Positions 2,935 through 14,542 of a DNA stretch of 26,659 nucleotides are shown here, in pieces (positions within the stretch are counted from its first letter, which is position 1; every line of letters starts with the position of its first letter). The notes beneath the pieces are model-generated. The model was not told where the DNA came from. It searched no databases and saw nothing but the letters and a program-made list of their open reading frames with translations. The stretch comes from an uncultured Lachnospiraceae bacterium. Lineage in GTDB: Bacteria > Bacillota > Clostridia > Lachnospirales > CAG-274. The DNA lies in the NCBI GenBank assembly GCA_964388305.1, contig CAYMAA010000010.1:1-26659 (forward strand), read 5' to 3'. Both the position numbers and the translations under genes were made by a program.

Positions 2935-4101
2935 TTAGTACCATCTTGTGGCAGGGAGAGAGTTATTTATTGTATTTGTAAAGAGTATTTGATGAACGTC
3001 TACTATACCATCGGTAAAGGCTGCGGCACAGGAGCAAAGATAAAGCTCCCACATTCTGACAAATTTTTCATCAAACATTTGTTTAATTTGGCTGCGGTTT
3101 GCCTGAAACGCACTGTTCCAGCAGAGCAGTGTTTTTACATAGTGACGGCGGAGACTTTCCGTATCCAATACATTAAAGCTTTGGTTTGCCGAAATAGATA
3201 TTATTTCTCTCAGGCTTGGTATTGTGCCGCCGGGGAAAATGTATTTTTTAAGCCACGGGTTGCCGGGGTTTTCCTTTAAAGCGCTTATAAAATGTAACAG
3301 AAAAAGTCCTCCCGGTTTGAGTATTTTTTTAACTGTGGACATAAATATGCCATAGTTGGGTCTGCTGACGTGTTCCAACATACCTACGCTTACAACTCTG
3401 TCAAATTTTTTATTCAAGGTCGGCAGGTCACGATAGTCCATAAGCCTTACCTCCAAAAGATCTTCAAGATGGTTTGCGGCTATCTGTTCTTCAAACCTTG
3501 CTTTTTGCTCTTTGCTGAGAGTTATGCCCGTGCCCTTAATGCGGTATTTTTTGGCGGCTTCTATAAGCAAAAAACCCCAGCCGCAGCCTATATCGCACAG
3601 TGTCATACCTTCCTTAATATACAGCTTTTTCAGTATGCGGTGTACCTTGTTGTACTGGGCGGTTTCGAGAGTATCCTCCGGGGATTGAAAATAACCGCAG
3701 GAATAGCTCATGGTATCATCAAGCCAAAGCTTATAAAAATTATTGCCTATGTCGTAATGAGATGAAACCTGCTGTTTTTGACTGCTTTTTTCGGTATGAG
3801 GAAACATTATTTTTCTTAAAAGCAGCTTGTTTTCGGAAAAGCTGTTTATTTGGCTTAAAAAGCTGCACAGGGTAGTGTATAAATCCCCCTCGATTTCTAT
3901 ATCGCCGTTCATGTATGCCTCGCCCAAGGTTATGGAGGTGCTTTTCAACAGGCTTGAAATACGGGGCGCTTTGTTGATTTTTACCGTAAATACAGGCTCG
4001 CCTGTGCCTATAGCGTATTCTTTGTTATTAAGTATCATTTTAAATGGCTGTTTGTCAAATTTTTGAATATAATTTATAAATTGTTTTTCTGCCATGTGCA
4101 T
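2935..4101 (-). CDS. cfa: Cyclopropane-fatty-acyl-phospholipid synthase
   Basis: 388-aa protein with a SAM methyltransferase motif (LCDIGCGWG) and a CFA-synthase-type N- and C-terminus (HYDIGNNFY, MWELYLCSCAAAF). AAGGAGG lies 8 nt upstream of the ATG. Confidence 0.9.
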   Translation of the reverse strand: MHMAEKQFINYIQKFDKQPFKMILNNKEYAIGTGEPVFTVKINKAPRISSLLKSTSITLGEAYMNGDIEIEGDLYTTLCSFLSQINSFSENKLLLRKIMFPHTEKSSQKQQVSSHYDIGNNFYKLWLDDTMSYSCGYFQSPEDTLETAQYNKVHRILKKLYIKEGMTLCDIGCGWGFLLIEAAKKYRIKGTGITLSKEQKARFEEQIAANHLEDLLEVRLMDYRDLPTLNKKFDRVVSVGMLEHVSRPNYGIFMSTVKKILKPGGLFLLHFISALKENPGNPWLKKYIFPGGTIPSLREIISISANQSFNVLDTESLRRHYVKTLLCWNSAFQANRSQIKQMFDEKFVRMWELYLCSCAAAFTDGIVDVHQILFTNTINNSLPATRWY

Positions 4102-4332
4102 ATATACTGCCTCCTTTATTTAGAGTATTTGCGCTTTTGGAATATTTATACATACAAGGCATACTGAAATTAATATGATGGTATGCACACCTGCCTGTTA
4201 ACAGTTTTTGTACGGGACTTCATTGAAAGGCAATAAATACTCGCATTTTTATTTATGCTTACATTATGTCATATTTTGAAAACAAATAATATTATACGAA
4301 AAATTTTTCAGTGCTTAACAATTTTTGATGTA

Positions 4333-4628
4333 ATATAAAGACACCCTGCTAAAAGGCGGCCGGCCGAGCCTCTATGAAAGGAGATGAAACTGCTATGACA
4401 TACTTCGATATAATTTTTTGTATGCCGTTATATAGTTTTTGTATGCTGCACATTACATAGCATTAACATATATTGCAACTTTTTGTAATGAAAAAGACCG
4501 CCCTTACAGCAATTAAGTTGACGGTCTAATTTGTAGATTTAATCTGCATTTAAGTTCGCCGACCAACCGCCCTTTAAGCGGGGTGTCGTTGAGAGGTGAG
4601 TATCAGCAGTACCCACCTTTCTATTTGT
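4333..4628 (-). ncRNA. Candidate structured ncRNA, copy 1 (~296 nt), family unassigned
   Basis: - Predicted TSS ~7 nt downstream of the promoter at 4635-4663.
- 5' hairpin GGUGGGUA/UACUCACC (4592-4620).
- Long closing helix between 4557-4587 and 4340-4369, followed by UUUAUAUU.
- Internal terminator-like hairpin at 4495-4527, followed by UUUUUC.
- Hairpin 4367-4391 with loop AUCUCCUUUCAUA.
- Several pairs are G-U on the minus strand but C-A mismatches on the plus strand. Confidence 0.6.
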
Positions 4629-4634
4629 ATTTAC

Positions 4635-4663
4635 ATTATACTATTTTTTCAAAATAAAATCAA
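4635..4663 (-). promoter_or_regulatory. Sigma-A-type promoter of ncRNA copy 1 (TTGATT-17-TATAAT)
   Basis: Read on the minus strand: TTGATT (4663-4658), a 17-nt spacer, then TATAAT (4640-4635). An identical hexamer arrangement occurs in copy 2. The -35 lies inside the palindrome AAAATAAA-N7-TTTATTTT (4651-4673). Confidence 0.7.
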
Positions 4664-4696
4664 TATTTATTTTGGATTTATTTTTACAAAAATTCT

Positions 4697-4754
4697 TTTG
4701 ATATTTGACAAATTATGCTATGTAATTTGATATTTGACAAATTGAGCTGCGTAA
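4697..4754. repeat. Two adjacent 29-bp direct repeats between the RNA copies
   Basis: tttgatatttgacaaattatgctatgtaa (4697-4725) and tttgatatttgacaaattgagctgcgtaa (4726-4754). The first 18 nt are identical. Each contains the 11-bp palindrome ATTTGaCAAAT. Confidence 0.8.
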
Positions 4755-4988
4755 AACAAAAAGACATCCTTCTTAAAGGGCGGTTGGTCAAGCCTCTATG
4801 AAAGGAGGTGAGGCTGCTATGACATACTTCGATACAATTTATCGTAGCTCATCGTAATGAAAAAGACCGCCTTTACCGCAAATGAGCCGGCGGTCTGATT
4901 TGCGGGTTAAAACCCATATTTTTTATTGCAGACCAACCGCCTTTTAAGCAAGGTGTCGTTGAAAGGCGAGTATTGATACTGCCCGCCT
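4754..4988 (-). ncRNA. Candidate structured ncRNA, copy 2 (~235 nt), family unassigned
   Basis: - Predicted TSS ~7 nt downstream of the promoter at 4995-5023.
- 5' hairpin GGCGGG/CUCGCC (4962-4990).
- 27-bp closing helix between 4931-4957 and 4763-4789, followed by UUUUUGUUUU.
- Internal hairpin AGACCGCC/GGCGGUCU (4864-4896), followed by UUUUUC.
- Hairpin 4791-4815 with loop ACCUCCUUUCAUA. Confidence 0.6.
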
Positions 4989-4994
4989 TTTGTT

Positions 4995-5023
4995 TTGTAC
5001 TCACATTATACTATACCTTAAAA
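4995..5023 (-). promoter_or_regulatory. Sigma-A-type promoter of ncRNA copy 2 (TTGATT-17-TATAAT)
   Basis: Read on the minus strand: TTGATT (5023-5018), a 17-nt spacer, then TATAAT (5000-4995). The same palindrome spans the -35 (5011-5033). The block 4993-5070 closely matches 4633-4700. Confidence 0.7.
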
Positions 5024-5199
5024 ATAAAATCAATATTTATTTTGGATTTATTTTTATAAAATTTCTTTTGCGGTGTTATGCGGGTTTTGCCGTATAATGG
5101 CAGGCTTTTGCGCTAACAAACGGTGTGTTTATAGGGATTTTAGAGTGACCTTGCGAATTTATTATCAATTCGGAATTTATGCCGCAGAGTTATTTTTGC

Positions 5200-5226
5200 T
5201 TGACATAAACGCCAAAATGGTATACT
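5200..5226 (+). promoter_or_regulatory. Candidate rny promoter (TTGACA ... TGgTATACT)
   Basis: TTGACA at 5200-5205, a 15-nt spacer, and an extended -10 aTGgTATACT (5221-5226). It lies ~180 nt upstream of rny. Confidence 0.45.
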
Positions 5227-5407
5227 ATATTAGTAGTACTGTAAATAAATTTTTGTAATTAATTAAAGGGGATTTTTTATGTTTCCTCATATATAGTACA
5301 TATTTATTAAAGTACTTGCCGCTTTTTGTTTTCCGACTGAGCATTAAGGTTTACAAAGGGCAGCCCATGTACATTGAAAATTAAATAAGGAGGTATCAGT
5401 ATCTATT

Positions 5408-6952
5408 ATGCAACCAATTATTATAATAACAGCGGCTGTTTTGATTTTGGCATTGGCTGTTGGATATGCCGTTGGATACATTATGAGAAAAAAGACTGCT
5501 GAGGCAGCCATTGGTTCTGCAGAAAAAGAGGCTGAAAGCATTATCCTTGAGGCAAAAAAGACTGCCGAAACAAGAAAAAAGGAAATTCTTGTAGAGGCAA
5601 AGGAAGAAAGCCTTAAAACAAGAAATGAGCTTGAAAAGGAAGTTAGGGAAAGAAAAACCGAGCTTCAGAGAAGAGAAAAGCAGTTGCAGCAAAAGGAAGA
5701 TAACCTTGACAGAAAGTCCGACTCTTTAGATAAGCGCAGCGATCAGCTTGCTAAAAGAATGGACAATGTAGACAAAAAACTCAAGCAGGCGGAGGAGCTT
5801 CTTACGCAAAGAGAATCCGAGCTGCAAAGAATTTCCGGACTGACAACGGAAGAAGCAAAAGCACTTATATTATCTTCTCTTGAAGAAGAGCTTAAACATG
5901 AAAAGGCTGTTTTAATCAAGGAATATGATACAGCTATTAAGCAGGACTGTGAAAAAAAAGCACGCGAAGTTATTGCGAGCGCTATTCAAAGATGTGCGGT
6001 AGACCACGTTGCCGAAAGCACGGTATCGGTAGTTACACTGCCAAATGATGAGATGAAAGGCCGTATTATAGGCAGAGAGGGCAGAAACATCAGGGCTCTC
6101 GAATCTCTTACAGGTGTTGAATTTATTATAGACGATACACCCGAGGCTGTTATTCTTTCCGGGTTTGACGCAATGAGAAGAGAAATTGCAAGAATTGCTC
6201 TTGAAAGACTTATTGTAGACGGAAGAGTACACCCTGCAAGAATTGAAGAAATGGTTGAAAAGGCTACCAAAGAGGTAGAGCAGAATATGAGAGAAGAAGG
6301 CGAAAGCGCCTCCTTTGAAACGGGAGTGCATAATCTCCACCCTGAAATTATCCGTCTTTTGGGTAAGCTGAAATTCAGGACAAGCTATGGTCAAAATGTG
6401 CTAAAGCACTCCATAGAGGTATCTCACCTTTGCGGCATTATGGCGGCAGAGCTGGGGTTAGATACTACCCTTGCAAAAAGGGCAGGTCTTTTGCACGATA
6501 TAGGCAAGGCAATAGACCACGATATGGACGGCTCACACATAGAGCTTGGTGTAGCTCTTTGCCGAAAGTATCACGAATCACCAATTGTTATTAACGCTGT
6601 AGAGGCTCACCACGGTGATGTAGAGCCTGAGAGCATTGTAGCTGTTCTTGTACAGGCGGCAGATGCTATTTCAGCAGCAAGACCCGGCGCAAGAAGAGAA
6701 ACGCTGGAGTCGTACATTAAACGGTTGGAATCCTTAGAGAATATAGCTTCTTCATTTGAGGGAGTTGAAAAAACATTTGCAATTCAGGCAGGCAGGGAAC
6801 TGCGAATTATAGTTATACCTGAGATTGTAGATGATGACGGCATGAAAATTCTGGCAAGAGATATTGCCGAAAAAATACATAACGAGTTGGAATATCCCGG
6901 CAAAATTAAAGTAAATCTCATAAGAGAAACAAGGGCGGTAGATTACGCCTGA
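5408..6952 (+). CDS. rny: Ribonuclease Y
   Basis: 514-aa protein with an N-terminal TM helix, a long charged coiled coil, a KH domain ([15 protein letters not shown]) and an HD domain (HSIEVSHL...LLHDIGKA). AAGGAGG lies upstream. Confidence 0.95.
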
Positions 6953-6974
6953 TATACCGATATTTCAAAGCTTT

Positions 6975-7007
6975 GGGGGTGTTTACAAAATGCCCCCTTT
7001 TTATTTT
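6975..7007 (+). terminator. Rho-independent terminator after rny
   Basis: GGGGG (6975-6979) pairs with CCCCC (6993-6997) and is followed by TTTTTATTTT. Confidence 0.7.
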
Positions 7008-7026
7008 ACAAAAAAAGGAGAAACCT

Positions 7027-7560
7027 ATGAAAAAAGTATTAATTGGGGTAATGGCGGCAATTTTTTTGGCAGGCTGTACCGCCGAGAAAAGGGACACACA
7101 GGGTTTGACAGGCATTGAGGCTGTTTCGCAGGACGGTTCGGTAACCATACTTTTGCCCGATAACACATTTATGCCGTCGGATGAGGGGTCTAACCACATG
7201 GATTTTGACTCTGAAAAAGGATATATTCACACGGAATGGGGAGATATTAACATTGAAGAAATCAGCGGGGCGCTGCCTCAGAATAAATCCGACGTTGAAG
7301 CGCTTTATACCGGTGTTGATGCGGATATTACGGTTAATGACGTAAGCTATGATGACAAAAATGGCGTAAAAACCTACATATCCTCAGTGAGCTTAAAAAA
7401 CTATGTTGAAGAAGGCTCTGAGGAGCCTGAAAGCTTTACCGTGCTGGAATATGTTGCTTCTTATGAGGACAAATATTATTATGCAACGGCGGATGTTTAT
7501 GATGAGGAAAGCGAGGATATTATATTAAAAAGCCTTAAAACCTTTGGCAGCACAAAGTAA
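7027..7560 (+). CDS. Acidic lipoprotein of unknown function (paralog 1)
   Basis: MKKVLIGVMAAIFLAGC signal peptide with a lipobox. AAGGAG lies upstream of the ATG at 7027; the ORF-track start at 6973 lies in the rny terminator. Confidence 0.7.
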   Translation: MKKVLIGVMAAIFLAGCTAEKRDTQGLTGIEAVSQDGSVTILLPDNTFMPSDEGSNHMDFDSEKGYIHTEWGDINIEEISGALPQNKSDVEALYTGVDADITVNDVSYDDKNGVKTYISSVSLKNYVEEGSEEPESFTVLEYVASYEDKYYYATADVYDEESEDIILKSLKTFGSTK

Positions 7561-7569
7561 AGGAGAATA

Positions 7570-8136
7570 ATGATGAAAAAACACATACTAATAATTTTTG
7601 CGGCTGCGGCGCTTGCTACTGCCGCCTGCGCAAAAGCCGATGCTCCCGCAGATGAAATAACCGAAACAACAACGGAGCAAATTGCGGAAGCAACGAAAGA
7701 AACAAATAACAACATAAGCTTTAATATATCTTCCGAGCTGTTTGAAAAAACGGGGGAGGGTCAAAACGAGATATACTACGGCTCTGATAACGGAAATATT
7801 GTAATTGCCGAAAAAACGGAAGAAGAGGACAGCATTTATGCAACCCTGCCCGAAACGGAGGAGCAGGTGACGGCGCTGTTTAACGGTTTGGAGGGAAGCT
7901 TTGACATTAAAGAATTCAGCCTTGAACAGGAAGGTGAAGCTAAAATTTATAAGGTTGTGGTAGATATTAGAAACCTGAGAACGCCTAACTCATCGGAGGA
8001 CGAGGGCGCAAGCTATATAATGGTTGAATATATAAATTCCACACCCCAAGGCTATAAGGACGCTTATGCCGAAATATACAATACAGACGTATTGATTGAC
8101 GTTAAGAAGGCATTTTCAAAATATATTGAAGGCTAA
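7570..8136 (+). CDS. Acidic lipoprotein of unknown function (paralog 2)
   Basis: MMKKHILIIFAAAALATAAC signal peptide with a lipobox. AAGGAG lies upstream, and the ATG at 7573 is better spaced. The C-terminal half is alignable by eye with the preceding ORF. Confidence 0.7.
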   Translation: MMKKHILIIFAAAALATAACAKADAPADEITETTTEQIAEATKETNNNISFNISSELFEKTGEGQNEIYYGSDNGNIVIAEKTEEEDSIYATLPETEEQVTALFNGLEGSFDIKEFSLEQEGEAKIYKVVVDIRNLRTPNSSEDEGASYIMVEYINSTPQGYKDAYAEIYNTDVLIDVKKAFSKYIEG

Positions 8137-10885: not shown

Positions 10886-11020
10886 AAAAAATCTTCAGGG
10901 AAAAGCTGTTTTGCAGTTTGTAGGTGAAAGTCCTTATCGGCGGTAAAGCCCGCGAGCCTTTTGGCTGATTTGGTGAAAGTCCAAAGCCGACGGTTAAAGT
11001 CCGGATGGAAGAAGATAAGA
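10886..11020 (+). promoter_or_regulatory. FMN riboswitch (RFN element) aptamer
   Basis: Matches conserved RFN segments: AUCUUCAGGG, GGUGAAAGUCC, AUCGGCGGUAAAGCCCGCGAGCC, GGUGAAAGUCCAAAGCCGACGGUUAAAGUCCGGAUGGAAGAAGAU. P1 is AUCUUC/GAAGAU. It sits directly upstream of ribD. Confidence 0.92.
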
Positions 11021-11088: not shown

Positions 11089-11104
11089 TTAGGAAGTGAT
11101 TTAT

Positions 11105-12193
11105 ATGGAAAATGCCGAGTTCTATATGAAAATGGCTTTGGAGCAGGCATTGTCGGGAAAGGGGTTTGTAAGCCCAAACCCAATGGTAGGGGCGGTTATT
11201 GTAAAAAACGGAAAGGTTTTGGCAAAGGGTTATCATCACAAATACGGCAGTTTACACGCAGAAAGGGACGCTTTTGCCAATTTAACCGAGGACTGTGCCG
11301 GCGCGGATATGTATGTTACTTTAGAGCCGTGCTGTCATTACGGAAAACAGCCGCCCTGCACCGATGCGATTATTGAGCATGGCATTAAAAGAATATTTAT
11401 AGGCTCAAAAGACCCAAACCCCATTGTAAACGGCAGGGGCAGGGCAATTTTGCAGGCTGCGGGCATAGAGGTGCATGAGGGCATTTTAAAGGAAGAATGT
11501 GATAGAATAAACCATATTTTCTTTCATTATATTACAAAAAAAATTCCCTATTATGTGTGCAAATATGCAATGACGGCGGACGGCAAAATTGCCGCTTATA
11601 CAGGTGACTCCAAATGGATAAGCTGTGAAGAGGCAAGGCAAAGGGTACATCGTATGCGAGGTGAATACAGAGGAATTATGGCAGGCATAAACACTGTATT
11701 AAGTGATGACCCTATGCTTAATTGCAGAACAGAGGGACTTAAAAGTCCCGTAAGAATAATTTGCGATTCCCGTTTAAAAATACCTGTTGAAAGCAAAATT
11801 GTTAAAACCGCAAAGGAGTACGAAACAATTGTGGCAACCGTAAGCAGGGATAATGAAAAAATTGAAAGGCTGAAAAAAGCAGGGGTGCAGGTTATTGCAA
11901 CATCGGCAAACAATGGTCAGGTAAACCTGAGGGAGCTTTCCGCAAGGCTTGGAGAAATGAAGATTGACAGCATACTTGTTGAGGGCGGCGGAGAGCTTAA
12001 CTTTTCCGTTATGAAGGCAGGCTTGTGCAAGAGGATTTTTGCTTTTATCTCCCCTAAAATTTTGGGAGGGAGCATGGCAAAAACGCCTGTTGAGGGAGCC
12101 GGCATTGAGCGTGTTAAGGATTGCTTAAAGCTTAATTTGCTTTCTGTACAAAAAACCGGTGACGATGTGCTGTTGGAATATGAGGTGATATAA
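11105..12193 (+). CDS. ribD: Bifunctional diaminohydroxyphosphoribosylaminopyrimidine deaminase / 5-amino-6-(5-phosphoribosylamino)uracil reductase
   Basis: Deaminase zinc motifs HAE and PCxxC (LEPCCHYGKQPPC), plus a C-terminal reductase domain. The ATG at 11105 lies 8 nt after AGGAAG. Confidence 0.92.
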   Translation: MENAEFYMKMALEQALSGKGFVSPNPMVGAVIVKNGKVLAKGYHHKYGSLHAERDAFANLTEDCAGADMYVTLEPCCHYGKQPPCTDAIIEHGIKRIFIGSKDPNPIVNGRGRAILQAAGIEVHEGILKEECDRINHIFFHYITKKIPYYVCKYAMTADGKIAAYTGDSKWISCEEARQRVHRMRGEYRGIMAGINTVLSDDPMLNCRTEGLKSPVRIICDSRLKIPVESKIVKTAKEYETIVATVSRDNEKIERLKKAGVQVIATSANNGQVNLRELSARLGEMKIDSILVEGGGELNFSVMKAGLCKRIFAFISPKILGGSMAKTPVEGAGIERVKDCLKLNLLSVQKTGDDVLLEYEVI

Positions 12194-12838
12194 ATGTTTA
12201 CGGGTCTTATTGAAGAGGTGGGAACGGTTGTTTCCATAAACGGCGGCGGAGATTTTGCAAGGCTTAATATAAGCTGCAAAAAGGCGCTTGAAAACACAAG
12301 TGTTGGGGACAGTATTGCCGTAAACGGTTTATGCCTTACGGTTACGGAGCTTGGTGAAGATTGCTTTTTTGCAGATGTTATGGCGGAAAGCCTAAGACGC
12401 AGCTCTTTGGGCAGGCTCAAGCCGGGCGGCAGAGTTAATTTGGAAAGAGCTATGGCGGCAGACGGCAGGTTTGGCGGACATATTGTAAGCGGCCATATTG
12501 ACGGAACGGGAAAGGTGCTTGGAATGGTTAAAGAGGGCATTGCGACTGTTGTGGAAATCGGCGCAGGCTTTGAACTTTTGCATTATATTGTGGAAAAAGG
12601 CTCTGTTGCCATAGACGGCATAAGTCTTACGGTTATGAGTGTTGGCAAAAGCAGCTTTAAGGTTGGGGTTATACCTCACACAGGGGGAGAAACCACACTT
12701 TTGGACAGGCGCTTTGGAGATATGGTAAACATAGAAACAGATGTTTTGGGAAAATATATTGAAAAGCTTTTAAAAAACGGCAGACCTGCGGCGGAAGAAG
12801 AGCTTACGGCTGAGTTTTTGGCAGAAAACGGGTTTTAA
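12194..12838 (+). CDS. ribE: Riboflavin synthase (alpha chain)
   Basis: MFTGLIEEVG N-terminus and duplicated lumazine-binding repeats (GDSIAVNGLCLTV and GSVAIDGISLTV). Confidence 0.92.
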   Translation: MFTGLIEEVGTVVSINGGGDFARLNISCKKALENTSVGDSIAVNGLCLTVTELGEDCFFADVMAESLRRSSLGRLKPGGRVNLERAMAADGRFGGHIVSGHIDGTGKVLGMVKEGIATVVEIGAGFELLHYIVEKGSVAIDGISLTVMSVGKSSFKVGVIPHTGGETTLLDRRFGDMVNIETDVLGKYIEKLLKNGRPAAEEELTAEFLAENGF

Positions 12839-12850
12839 GGAGGTACTGCT

Positions 12851-14059
12851 TTGGAAAGGTTTATAACAAACACCATTGAAGAAGCCATTGAGGACATAAG
12901 GGCAGGAAAGATGGTTGTTACCATTGACGATGAGGACAGAGAAAACGAGGGCGATGTTATTGTTGCCGCAGAGTTTGCGGACACGGCAGCGGTGAACTTT
13001 ATGGCAAGCCATGCAAAGGGACTTATATGTATGCCCATGAGCGGCGAATATATTAAAAAATTGGGTTTAAAGCCTATGGTTGAGCATAATACGGACAATC
13101 ACGAAACGGCATTTACGGAATCCATAGACCATATAAGCACTACCACGGGCATATCTGCTTATGAGCGTTCAGTTACTGCAATGATGGCGGCAAGGGACGA
13201 TGCAAAACCGAGAGATTTCAGACGGCCCGGGCATATGTTTCCTTTAGAGGCAAAAGAGGGCGGAGTGCTTAAAAGAATTGGTCACACTGAAGCAACGGTG
13301 GATTTGTGCCGTTTGGCAGGACTTAAACCCATTGGCTTGTGCTGCGAAATTATGAAAGATGACGGCACAATGGCAAGAAGGGACGACCTTGTGGAGTTTG
13401 CCGAAAAATACGGTCTTAAACTGATTACAATAGCAGACCTTGTGGCTTACCGCATTGGCAGGGAAAAGCTTGTGGAATGCGTTGCGAAGGCAAAAATGCC
13501 TACTCACTTTGGCAAATTTGAAATTTACGGATATGTAAACAAGCTAAACGGAGAGCATCATGTTGCCCTTGTTAAAGGCGATGTTGCGGACGGAAAGCCT
13601 GTTTTATGCAGAGTTCACTCAGAGTGCTTAACAGGTGACGCTTTGGGAAGCTGCCGATGTGACTGCGGACAGCAATACAGAGCCGCTATGAATATGATTG
13701 AAAAAGAGGGGAGAGGCGTGCTTGTTTATATGAGGCAGGAGGGCAGAGGAATTGGACTTATTAACAAGCTCCGTGCTTATGAGCTGCAGGATAAGGGTAT
13801 GGATACCGTTGAGGCAAACCTTGCGCTGGGTTTTCCCGAGGATTTAAGGGATTACGGAATTGGGGCGCAAATTCTTGTGGATTTAGGCGTTAAAAAGCTC
13901 AGACTTATGACAAACAACCCCAAAAAAGTATCGGGACTTTCCGGCTACGGCATAGAAATTGTGGAAAGAGTGCCTATTCAGATAGAGCCAACTGAGGCTG
14001 ACGAATTTTATTTAAAGACTAAAAAAGAAAAAATGGGTCATTATTTGGACAATGTGTAA
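12851..14059 (+). CDS. ribBA: Bifunctional 3,4-dihydroxy-2-butanone-4-phosphate synthase / GTP cyclohydrolase II
   Basis: DHBP synthase domain ([10 protein letters not shown]) and a GCH-II zinc site (CxxxxxxxxxxCxC: [17 protein letters not shown]). TTG start lies 8 nt after AAGGAGG. Confidence 0.9.
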
Positions 14060-14080
14060 TTTTAAAGGAGGAATTTTATT

Positions 14081-14542
14081 ATGAAGATTTATGAGGGAAA
14101 ACTGACAGCAAACGGAATCAGAGTGGGAATTGTATGCTCAAGATTTAATGAATTTATTGTTTCCAAGCTTCTTTCGGGAGCTTTGGACGGACTAAGACGT
14201 CACGATGTGGAAGAGGACAACATAAGCGTTGCATGGGTACCCGGGGCATTTGAACTGCCTGTTATCGCTCAAAAAATGGCTGAAAGCGGAAAGTTTGATG
14301 CGGTAATTTGTTTGGGTGCGGTTATAAGAGGCGCCACAAGCCATTATGACCTTGTTTGCGCCGAGGTAAGCAAGGGTATTGCCCAAACATCGCTTAAAAC
14401 AGGTATTCCTGTTTTATTTGGAGTTGTTACAACGGATACCATTGCGCAGGCTGTTGAAAGAGCAGGCACAAAGGCAGGCAACAAGGGTTATGACTGCGCT
14501 CTTTCCGCACTGGAAATGGTTAATCTTATTAAAGAGCTTTAA
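14081..14542 (+). CDS. ribH: 6,7-dimethyl-8-ribityllumazine synthase
   Basis: 153-aa protein. VPGAFELP, the typical lumazine synthase motif, is present. AAGGAGG lies upstream. Confidence 0.93.

Follow-up and report, generated by a model that had tools for sequence, protein, structure and literature searches.

Tandem small-RNA-like units beside cfa in an uncultured Lachnospiraceae bacterium and their paralogy with the cfa promoter and leader

The gap between the cfa and rny genes of an uncultured Lachnospiraceae bacterium (contig CAYMAA010000010.1 of assembly GCA_964388305.1) contains a duplicated unit, which an earlier note made from the DNA letters alone had read as two tandem, self-contained copies of an unassigned structured RNA gene. 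We examined this unit within a window of 26,659 nucleotides (nt), by which we mean the whole stretch of DNA analyzed, positions 1 to 26,659 of the contig. The cfa gene (2935-4101, minus strand; Pfam CMAS, E = 4e-95) encodes a cyclopropane-fatty-acyl-phospholipid synthase, the rny gene (5408-6952, plus strand; Pfam RNase_Y_N, KH, and HD domains) encodes RNase Y, and the gap between them measures ~1.3 kb. Copy 1 of the unit occupies 4333-4700 and copy 2 occupies 4754-5070, exactly where the earlier note had placed them, and the two are ~83% identical. Both are read here on the minus strand, co-oriented with cfa, which lies downstream of both, and divergent from rny. The gap was also rightly described as lacking a credible open reading frame (ORF), given that no ORF in it exceeds 44 amino acids (aa) and no small ORF in it matches Pfam. 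The surroundings are ordinary chromosomal housekeeping DNA without mobile-element genes.

Three direct-repeat families (D1, D3, and D4) join 4350-4700 to 4774-5070 at 75-85% identity and a spacing of 369-424, and MAFFT aligned the two copies over their full length, save for a stretch of ~55 nt (4412-4466, minus strand) that is present in copy 1 alone and that shifts and lengthens a small ORF on the plus strand. The layout of each unit on the minus strand runs from an AT-rich block through a promoter, a 5' hairpin (P1), and a linker to a long closing helix (P2), inside which lie three further hairpins (P3, P4, and P6). From the predicted start to the U-tract UUUUUGUUUU, the full-length RNA predicted for copy 2 would be ~246 nt long (4753-4998, minus strand), with a minimum free energy (MFE) of -88.8 kcal/mol (z = -6.55). 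Its counterpart in copy 1 would be ~297 nt long (4332-4628, minus strand; MFE -96.6 kcal/mol, z = -6.4).

The promoters are conserved between the copies. Each copy carries TTGATT-17-TATAAT on the minus strand, the near-consensus promoter that had been proposed, which agrees with the consensus at 10 of 12 positions in both copy 2 (5005-5033, predicted start near 4998) and copy 1 (4663-4635, predicted start near 4628). The two promoters occupy the same register, their hexamers are identical, and their spacers differ at four positions in the alignment. The AT-rich upstream block (5034-5070 in copy 2 and 4664-4700 in copy 1, both minus strand) is likewise as conserved as had been claimed: two differences fall in its outermost 17 nt, and the next 41 columns, which run through the -35 hexamer, are identical. 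A 23-nt core of this block occurs only twice in the window, once in each unit. In copy 2 the block takes part in an imperfect palindrome (I5, arms 5019-5036/5039-5056) that partly overlaps the promoter; the same palindrome, with 18-nt arms, overlaps the -35 region of both unit promoters, at 5019-5056 and 4649-4686. Neither the remainder of the window nor the cfa-proximal copy described below contains it. A block of this kind is a possible operator or activator site, or a possible UP element, and its invariance in both units together with its absence from the cfa copy suggests an additional regulator. We count the perfect identity of the hexamers and of the upstream run, set against an overall identity of only ~83%, in favor of small RNA (sRNA) genes.

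The unit also has a third, degenerate copy, which is none other than the cfa promoter together with the beginning of its leader. This segment (4220-4293, minus strand) is homologous to the unit promoter, P1, and the linker, with 71-74% identity over 58-82 nt and z = 6.8-6.9 against shuffles, and repeat family D2 accordingly has three members, at 4238, 4610, and 4980, separated by spacings of 372 and 370. The cfa promoter appears to have an extended -10 element, TGaCATAAT (4263-4271, minus strand), and a poor -35 element, while the unit promoters have no TG. A covariance model built from the two units (R1) detects those two units and gives the cfa leader just 10.7 bits. Read from these repeats, the locus is a 2.5-copy tandem duplication of the cfa promoter-leader with a period of ~370 bp, in which all copies point toward cfa. 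The description of the units as self-contained therefore stands only halfway, since they are members of a tandem duplication terminating in cfa, whose promoter and leader are paralogs of the unit promoter, 5' hairpin, and linker. This promoter paralogy also suggests that the units would probably be expressed under cfa-related conditions. A different kinship, in which the Shine-Dalgarno (SD) sequence and ATG of the unit would be an inverted copy of the cfa start, so that an antisense would have been derived from its target, was rejected because the local alignment did not rise above shuffles.

A regular series of three copies, at spacings of 372 and 370 and with the last grading into cfa, is also what would be expected if the units were relics. 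Under such a scenario, a cfa promoter-leader with a once-perfect inverted repeat was duplicated twice at the ~370-bp period, and the upstream copies have been decaying ever since; they may still fire as promoters, their products being functionless. We consider this scenario unlikely, although it is the most probable of the rivals to the sRNA reading. It sits poorly with the perfect conservation of the promoter hexamers and the upstream stretch against a background divergence of ~17%. Deletion bias in bacteria, moreover, should have removed a useless 700-bp tandem repeat before it reached 17% divergence, and the survival of the undeleted repeat argues, by that reasoning, for maintenance.

The junction between the units (4697-4754) has a repeat structure of its own: two 29-bp tandem repeats (D5, 86% identity), each with a TTGACA and each also bearing an AATTTG..CAAATT palindrome. 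A promoter-like site on the plus strand, TTGACA-18-GATATT, lies in the junction at 4705-4734. Within the stretch found in copy 1 alone, 4449-4463 is a 15-nt inverted match to the junction repeat, a match equaled by 4 of 1,000 shuffles. The junction repeat could be a protein-binding site or a remnant of the rearrangement by which the 3' half of copy 1 was displaced.

The hairpins and helices of the transcribed part largely confirm the earlier description. P1, which in copy 2 is AAGGCGGG...CUCGCCUU (4963-4989, minus strand; -9.7 kcal/mol on the minus strand and -9.1 kcal/mol on the plus strand) and in copy 1 lies at 4593-4619 (minus strand), does contain the compensatory pair that had been reported, U-A versus C-G (pair 16/34), and the linker CAACGACACC is indeed identical in both copies. 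The P2 helix of 27-30 bp also runs into a U-tract in both copies as described. In copy 2, its 5' arm GACACCUUGCUUAAAAGGCGGUUGGUC (4931-4957, minus strand) and its 3' arm (4763-4789, minus strand), which leads into the U-tract, face each other over 27 positions, comprising 23 Watson-Crick pairs, 1 G-U, 2 A-C, and 1 G-A; taken as an inverted repeat (I3), the arms 4931-4960/4760-4789 are 83% complementary. The P2 arms of copy 1 lie at 4558-4587/4340-4369 (minus strand). The U-tracts that abut the 3' arms are UUUUUGUUUU at 4753-4762 in copy 2 and UUUAUAUU at 4332-4339 in copy 1. The terminator scan flagged, in addition, a local terminator-like hairpin at 4358-4342 in copy 1. Both copies hence have the motifs by which sRNA genes are generally recognized, namely a promoter of their own and, farther down the same strand, an intrinsic terminator, and the retention of both terminators and their U-tracts in both copies is a further point against mere decay of a relict duplication.

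Separately, 20 nt of P1 and the adjoining U-tract of copy 2 (4977-4996, TACTGCCCGCCTTTTGTTTT) are 85% identical to TACTTGCCGCTTTTTGTTTT in the rny leader (5313-5332, plus strand), a similarity that may be due to chance or to a shared terminator-like motif.

The interior of P2 holds P3 (4533-4547 in copy 1, minus strand) and a second terminator-like element, P4, which is the internal hairpin of the earlier note. In copy 2, P4 (4856-4896, minus strand) has the form GACCGCC...GGCGGUC followed by UUUUUCAUU, with a folding energy of -14.3 kcal/mol and 6 U in the 8 nt past its extended stem, whose last pair takes the first U of the tract. In copy 1, P4 (4495-4527, with a U-tract at 4491-4495, minus strand; -11.7 kcal/mol) is likewise followed by UUUUUCAUU, and 18 nt of the P4 region, GGCGGTCTTTTTCATTAC, are identical between the copies. 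The promoter/terminator scan did not report P4 only because its loop is longer than 8 nt. As an internal intrinsic terminator, P4 predicts an RNA of ~140 nt besides the form of ~250-295 nt. The size of ~235-296 nt proposed previously ignores this internal terminator.

The sequence GGCGGU is shared by the 5' arm of P2 and the 3' arm of P4, as GACC..CGCC is by the 5' arm of P4 and the 3' arm of P2. The 5' arm of P4 can consequently pair with either partner, which yields a terminator/antiterminator layout of four segments; when copy 2 is folded in its 143-nt form, the MFE structure picks the antiterminator pairing, in which the 5' arms of P2 and P4 come together. Such a layout, in units that are co-oriented with cfa, directly upstream of it, and driven by promoters paralogous to its own, raises the prospect of control in cis. 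Three tandem promoters would then feed cfa, the distal transcripts would normally end at P4 or P2, and an antiterminator, or a factor favoring this pairing of the two 5' arms, would permit read-through, making the units conditional attenuators or insulators. We think this improbable. Each unit has two serial terminators and the copy 1 promoter lies between copy 2 and cfa, so that up to four terminators would have to be passed; Rfam recognizes no ligand- or protein-binding motif in the units, and no known aptamer or leader peptide was found there. Besides, cfa owns an extended -10 promoter, and the cfa genes of relatives are without such a leader.

The least-changed internal stretch of the unit is a core of 45 nt with three changes between the copies, all of them G-U-compatible on the minus strand. 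In copy 2 this core, made up of UAUCGAAGUAUGUCAUAGCAG and hairpin P6, spans 4790-4836 (minus strand), and the 13-nt loop of P6, ACCUCCUUUCAUA, is an anti-SD sequence; P6 of copy 1 lies at 4366-4392 (minus strand). Within the core, a 21-mer and a 17-mer are shared by the copies without a mismatch and have no further occurrence in the window; by our own estimate, identity runs of 17-21 nt are about what chance would give at 83% identity, which accords with the relict scenario. Read on the minus strand, the core is 5'-CAU-N10-CCUCCUUUC-3', in full GUCAUAGCAGCCUCACCUCCUUUC, with CAU 10 nt upstream of CCUCC; the CAU sits just 5' of P6, and CCUCCUUUC lies within the P6 loop. The loop sequence UCACCUCCUUUC is identical at 12 of 12 positions to the anti-SD tail of Firmicute 16S rRNA, with the anti-AUG at natural spacing. 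In its predicted fold, the unit thereby presents an accessible sequence complementary to SD and AUG in the correct order.

This last property is shared with the CiaR-dependent small RNAs (csRNAs) of Streptococcus. Those RNAs have an unpaired segment complementary to SD and AUG, with CAU in 53 of 61, for which a block of translation initiation has been proposed, and the anti-SD lies in the unpaired region between two stem-loops (PMC3091779). Like the units, csRNAs are multi-copy siblings with strong promoters and terminators of their own. The units differ from them in length (140-295 nt), in their 27-30-bp closing helix, and in displaying the anti-SD in a hairpin loop, so that the csRNA architecture is not reproduced; they also belong to a clostridial metagenome-assembled genome (MAG), not to a streptococcus, and they match no Rfam family. 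The CiaR-type direct repeat has the consensus TTTAAG-N5-TTTAAG. No repeat of this type lies upstream of the unit promoters, and matches to it at <=2 mismatches occur in the window at chance level; the sole such match inside a unit (4538-4554, plus strand) falls within the transcribed region and precedes no promoter.

The minus-strand transcription unit is, judged on sequence features, the best reading of each copy, and to that extent the earlier note is upheld. The case is carried by the conserved near-consensus promoters, by the two terminators with their U-tracts, and by the G-U pairs that preserve P6 in copy 1: two such pairs keep this hairpin intact on the minus strand only, and P6, P4, and part of P2 of copy 1 all stay paired, through G-U, on that strand alone. 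Several groups of results weigh against this reading.

The first concerns the strand. Whole-unit folds on the minus strand stand far above shuffles (z -6.4 to -6.6), and the plus strand folds equally well (z -6.1 to -6.7), for which reason folding energy was rejected as a means of calling the strand. The P2 inverted repeat contributes most of the fold z; taken by itself, the 5' half reaches z -2.5 to -2.8, and the 3' half alone does not fold significantly better than shuffles. Strand-specific wobble, another pillar of the earlier argument, fares only partly better. The G-U positions that had been quoted do exist, whereas the overall bias is weak: across all helices of both copies, the minus strand is favored at ~10 positions and the plus strand at 5 (p = 0.30), which is not significant, and wobble counts were rejected as a strand call as well. 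This count misregisters the P2 arms of copy 1 by one bulge, and a hand tally from the MFE pairs gives a similar ratio. P1 followed by UUGUUUUG (or UCUAUUUG) resembles a plus-strand terminator, with 6 U in the 8 nt that follow P1 of copy 2. Both copies also have promoter-like sites with 9-10 of 12 consensus positions at a distance of 20-40 nt upstream of the plus-strand unit; these sites are non-homologous between the copies, and sites of the kind abound in the AT-rich gap, with 13 against an expected 7.6 +/- 2.9.

The anti-SD core, too, reads equally well as a perfect SD and ATG on the opposite strand, which opens a coding or antisense rival. In copy 2 the plus strand reads GAAAGGAGGTGA (4800-4811)-N7-ATG (4819)-ACA-TAC-TTC-GAT, a perfect Firmicute initiation region, which pairs with a model of the 16S rRNA 3' end at -21.5 kcal/mol; the best real gene start in the window reaches -14.9 kcal/mol. 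The ORFs that follow are MTYFDTIYRSSS in copy 2 (12 aa, 4819-4857, plus strand) and MTYFDIIFCMPLYSFCMLHIT in copy 1 (21 aa, 4395-4460, plus strand). A type I toxin-antitoxin-like pair would make sense of these signals: the plus strand would give an mRNA in which the long 5'-3' helix surrounds a short ORF with a very strong SD and P1 with its U-tract forms the end, and the minus-strand RNA would repress it as its antisense. The attractions of such a pair are that the copies agree exactly in the SD, the ATG, and 5 initial codons, that folding is no worse on the plus strand, that P1 is followed by a U-tract on the plus strand, and that promoter-like sites lie upstream of both copies. A long 5'-3' closing helix is, further, typical of hok-like and aapA-like toxin mRNAs. 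The likeness extends to the type I systems of Firmicutes (CD2517.1-RCd8 of C. difficile, bsrG/SR4 and txpA/RatA of B. subtilis, and par of E. faecalis), in which an RNA gene runs against a short ORF that has a strong SD, and is seen in the hairpins present on both strands (P4 and P1) and in the long-range helix around the ORF.

Type I toxins have been described as hydrophobic proteins 28-60 aa long that have a transmembrane helix and end in a charged C-terminus (PMC6563280). The peptides of the units, by comparison, are 21 and 12 aa long (28 and 19 aa if begun at an upstream ATG), share just 5 residues, MTYFD, and diverge through a 55-nt indel that is not a multiple of three, and have neither a predicted membrane helix, nor a charged C-terminus, nor a Pfam match. 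A comparison of the small ORFs, the Pfam search, and a translated search found no conserved coding potential. The candidate toxin promoters are non-homologous and at the level of the AT-rich background, P6 and P4 of copy 1 carry C-A mismatches on the plus strand, and there is no prophage or mobile-element context. A toxin-antitoxin-like pair is, on this balance, improbable.

The second group of results concerns selection on RNA structure, which the earlier note had overstated. Three pairs in all are changed on both sides between the copies (one in P1 and two in P3), a number matched by 57 of 500 shuffles, and only two sequences are available for comparison. The differences between the copies in P2 are all one-sided. 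P2 has about 10 imperfections, as many as there are differences between its arms in the two copies, as would be expected of a perfect inverted repeat decaying neutrally. The long helix is, by that token, evidence for a relict duplication, and the three double compensations, which keep P1 and P3 paired, are evidence against one and count toward the sRNA reading. We conclude that the sequence observation behind the earlier note was sound and that its interpretation, plausible and partly supported, went further than these comparisons allow.

The third group concerns targets and relatives. Duplex energies calculated for the 25 start regions of the window single out no outstanding target; cfa ranks 3rd and rny 17th, and the units show no privileged pairing with the cfa start region. 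In E. coli and Salmonella, the long 5' untranslated region of cfa is acted upon by RydC, ArrS, and CpxQ, which makes cfa a hub of RNA-based regulation, and here RNA-like units adjoin cfa and share its promoter. Those regulators differ in being encoded elsewhere, in depending on Hfq, and in acting on a proteobacterial leader, and no homology between them and the units was found.

At gathering thresholds, Rfam 15 recognizes only an FMN riboswitch (10887-11020) in the whole window and no family at the units. A scan of 4100-5410 at E <= 10 returned five matches of 12-23 bits, against thresholds of 37-55, which is chance level. The earlier note had been unable to match the units to the consensus of several riboswitches and housekeeping RNAs, and the covariance-model scan it called for, which covered raiA, 6S, ROOL, HEARO, OLE, csRNAs, and type I antitoxin RNAs among others, bears this out. 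Pattern searches were equally barren. The strict pattern CATAGCAGNNTCANCTCCTTTCATAGAGG has 0 matches in GTDB genomes (species representatives) and 0 in JGI metagenomes; the loose pattern GTCATAGN9CTCCTTTCATA has 13 GTDB matches, every one an ordinary gene start on the opposite strand; the pattern CTATGACATACTTCGATA has 6 metagenome matches, all bare 18-21-mers; and a 17-mer scan gave 2 chance matches in viral contigs. The 756-bp region has no blastn match among plasmids and phages, and its six-frame translation (793 aa, concatenated) finds nothing at E <= 10 among 5.8 billion predicted proteins. Relatives of cfa (66-68% aa identity; L005-L011) have other neighbors, and the unit was not found beside them. 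Relatives of rny (84-87% identity; L031-L042), named as Clostridiales and Eubacterium sp. MAGs, have differing upstream neighbors (dnaJ, an aminotransferase, a gerA operon, or a MatE gene), and blastn shares with them only the rny promoter and start region. The next tier of RNase Y relatives, at 74%, includes Eubacterium sp. CAG:274 and Oscillospiraceae. An additional match of model R1 in one rny relative (L042) lies inside a spore-permease gene and was rejected as spurious. With no homologue in GTDB genomes, JGI metagenomes, plasmids, phages, the syntenic loci of relatives, or predicted proteins, the duplicated units are, as far as these searches can define them, an orphan element among the collections searched. 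Orphan status, with covariation that is not significant for two sequences, again suits the relict scenario.

The same searches bear on the idea that a miniature inverted-repeat transposable element (MITE) landed upstream of cfa and was later duplicated. The P2 arms, 27-30 bp long and resembling terminal inverted repeats around 140-190 bp, have the look of such an element, and short-read assemblies of the same strain break within the repeats. Tandem copies alone account for such breaks, no further copy exists in the 26.7-kb window or in the collections searched, and no target-site duplication is present, the flanks of the copy 2 arms being AAAAA and GTTGA. Since homology to the cfa leader, furthermore, crosses the supposed element boundary into the 5' arm, we regard a MITE as very improbable. 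The assemblies in question are two Logan contigs, L001 (SRR10165007) and L002 (SRR10165005), identical save at their ends, which stop in copy 1 and copy 2, respectively; because they end inside the repeats, they are uninformative on copy number. The end of L002 places the copy 1 version of the promoter spacer beside rny-proximal sequence, which could reflect an assembly chimera or a strain with a different arrangement of copies.

Weighing these data together, we tentatively favor, with somewhat less than even confidence, sibling minus-strand sRNAs that pair with translation-initiation regions. A tandem duplication of one promoter-leader segment, with its period of ~370 bp, would have given rise to the two sibling genes and to the present cfa promoter. 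In each sibling, a sigma-70-type promoter with its AT-rich palindromic upstream site would start transcription near 4628 (copy 1) or 4998 (copy 2), and P1 would form a protective hairpin at the 5' end of the RNA. Termination at P4 would yield an RNA of ~140 nt; should the P2 5' arm pair first with the P4 5' arm, transcription would instead end at P2 and its U-tract, giving ~250-295 nt. In this long form, 5'-CAU-N10-CCUCCUUUC-3' would pair with the SD and start codon of an mRNA and block the initiation of its translation.

Tandem sibling sRNAs that arose by local duplication are familiar from LhrC1-5 of Listeria, PrrF1/PrrF2 of Pseudomonas, and OmrA/OmrB of E. coli, and in LhrC, C/U-rich loops pair with SD regions. 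Like the units, these are adjacent paralogous sRNA genes, each with a promoter and a terminator. They are shorter than the units, are conserved across species, and have no similarity to them in sequence or structure, whereas the unit pair is an orphan whose duplication also takes in the promoter of a neighboring protein gene.

A variant of the sibling-sRNA reading, which we find improbable, supposes that the RNAs mimic the 3' end of 16S rRNA or that they form part of a new sense/antisense pair with both strands expressed. As mimics of 16S rRNA, they would be competitors of the ribosome at strong initiation regions of any kind, not at one target, and their origin from the cfa promoter, with the co-regulation that it implies, would link membrane-lipid remodeling to a global damping of translation initiation.

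Were the units expressed, they would be sibling sRNAs, a pair specific to one uncultured clostridial lineage of the gut or environment, for which we know of essentially no sRNA biology, and a clear case of an sRNA gene and the promoter of a protein gene descending from a common ancestor by tandem duplication. Their anti-SD/anti-AUG core would offer a directly testable mechanism and, if real, a new, lineage-restricted instance of sibling base-pairing sRNAs with a seed directed against initiation regions. Should they prove silent, the locus would serve as a caution, since a decaying tandem duplication with an inverted repeat inside it can yield near-consensus promoters, terminators, a fold at z = -6, and a few compensatory changes. 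Either way, no long-standing question is opened, and the orphan status of the element gives it a narrow reach.

The rny promoter, TTGACA-17-TACTAT (5200-5228), is conserved in relatives, among which 5200-5228 and 5360-5407 are the only conserved parts of the gap (compare L031 5317-6001), and some rny relatives carry a gene-free rny leader of ~600 nt. Two ORFs of ~190 aa directly after rny (6973-7560 and 7570-8136, plus strand) have no Pfam match, and genes of ~200 aa hold this position after rny in all relatives examined. The FMN riboswitch (RF00050; plus strand) scores 89.3 bits against a gathering threshold of 66.2 and lies directly upstream of ribD-ribE-ribBA-ribH (11096-14542), an ordinary, known arrangement.

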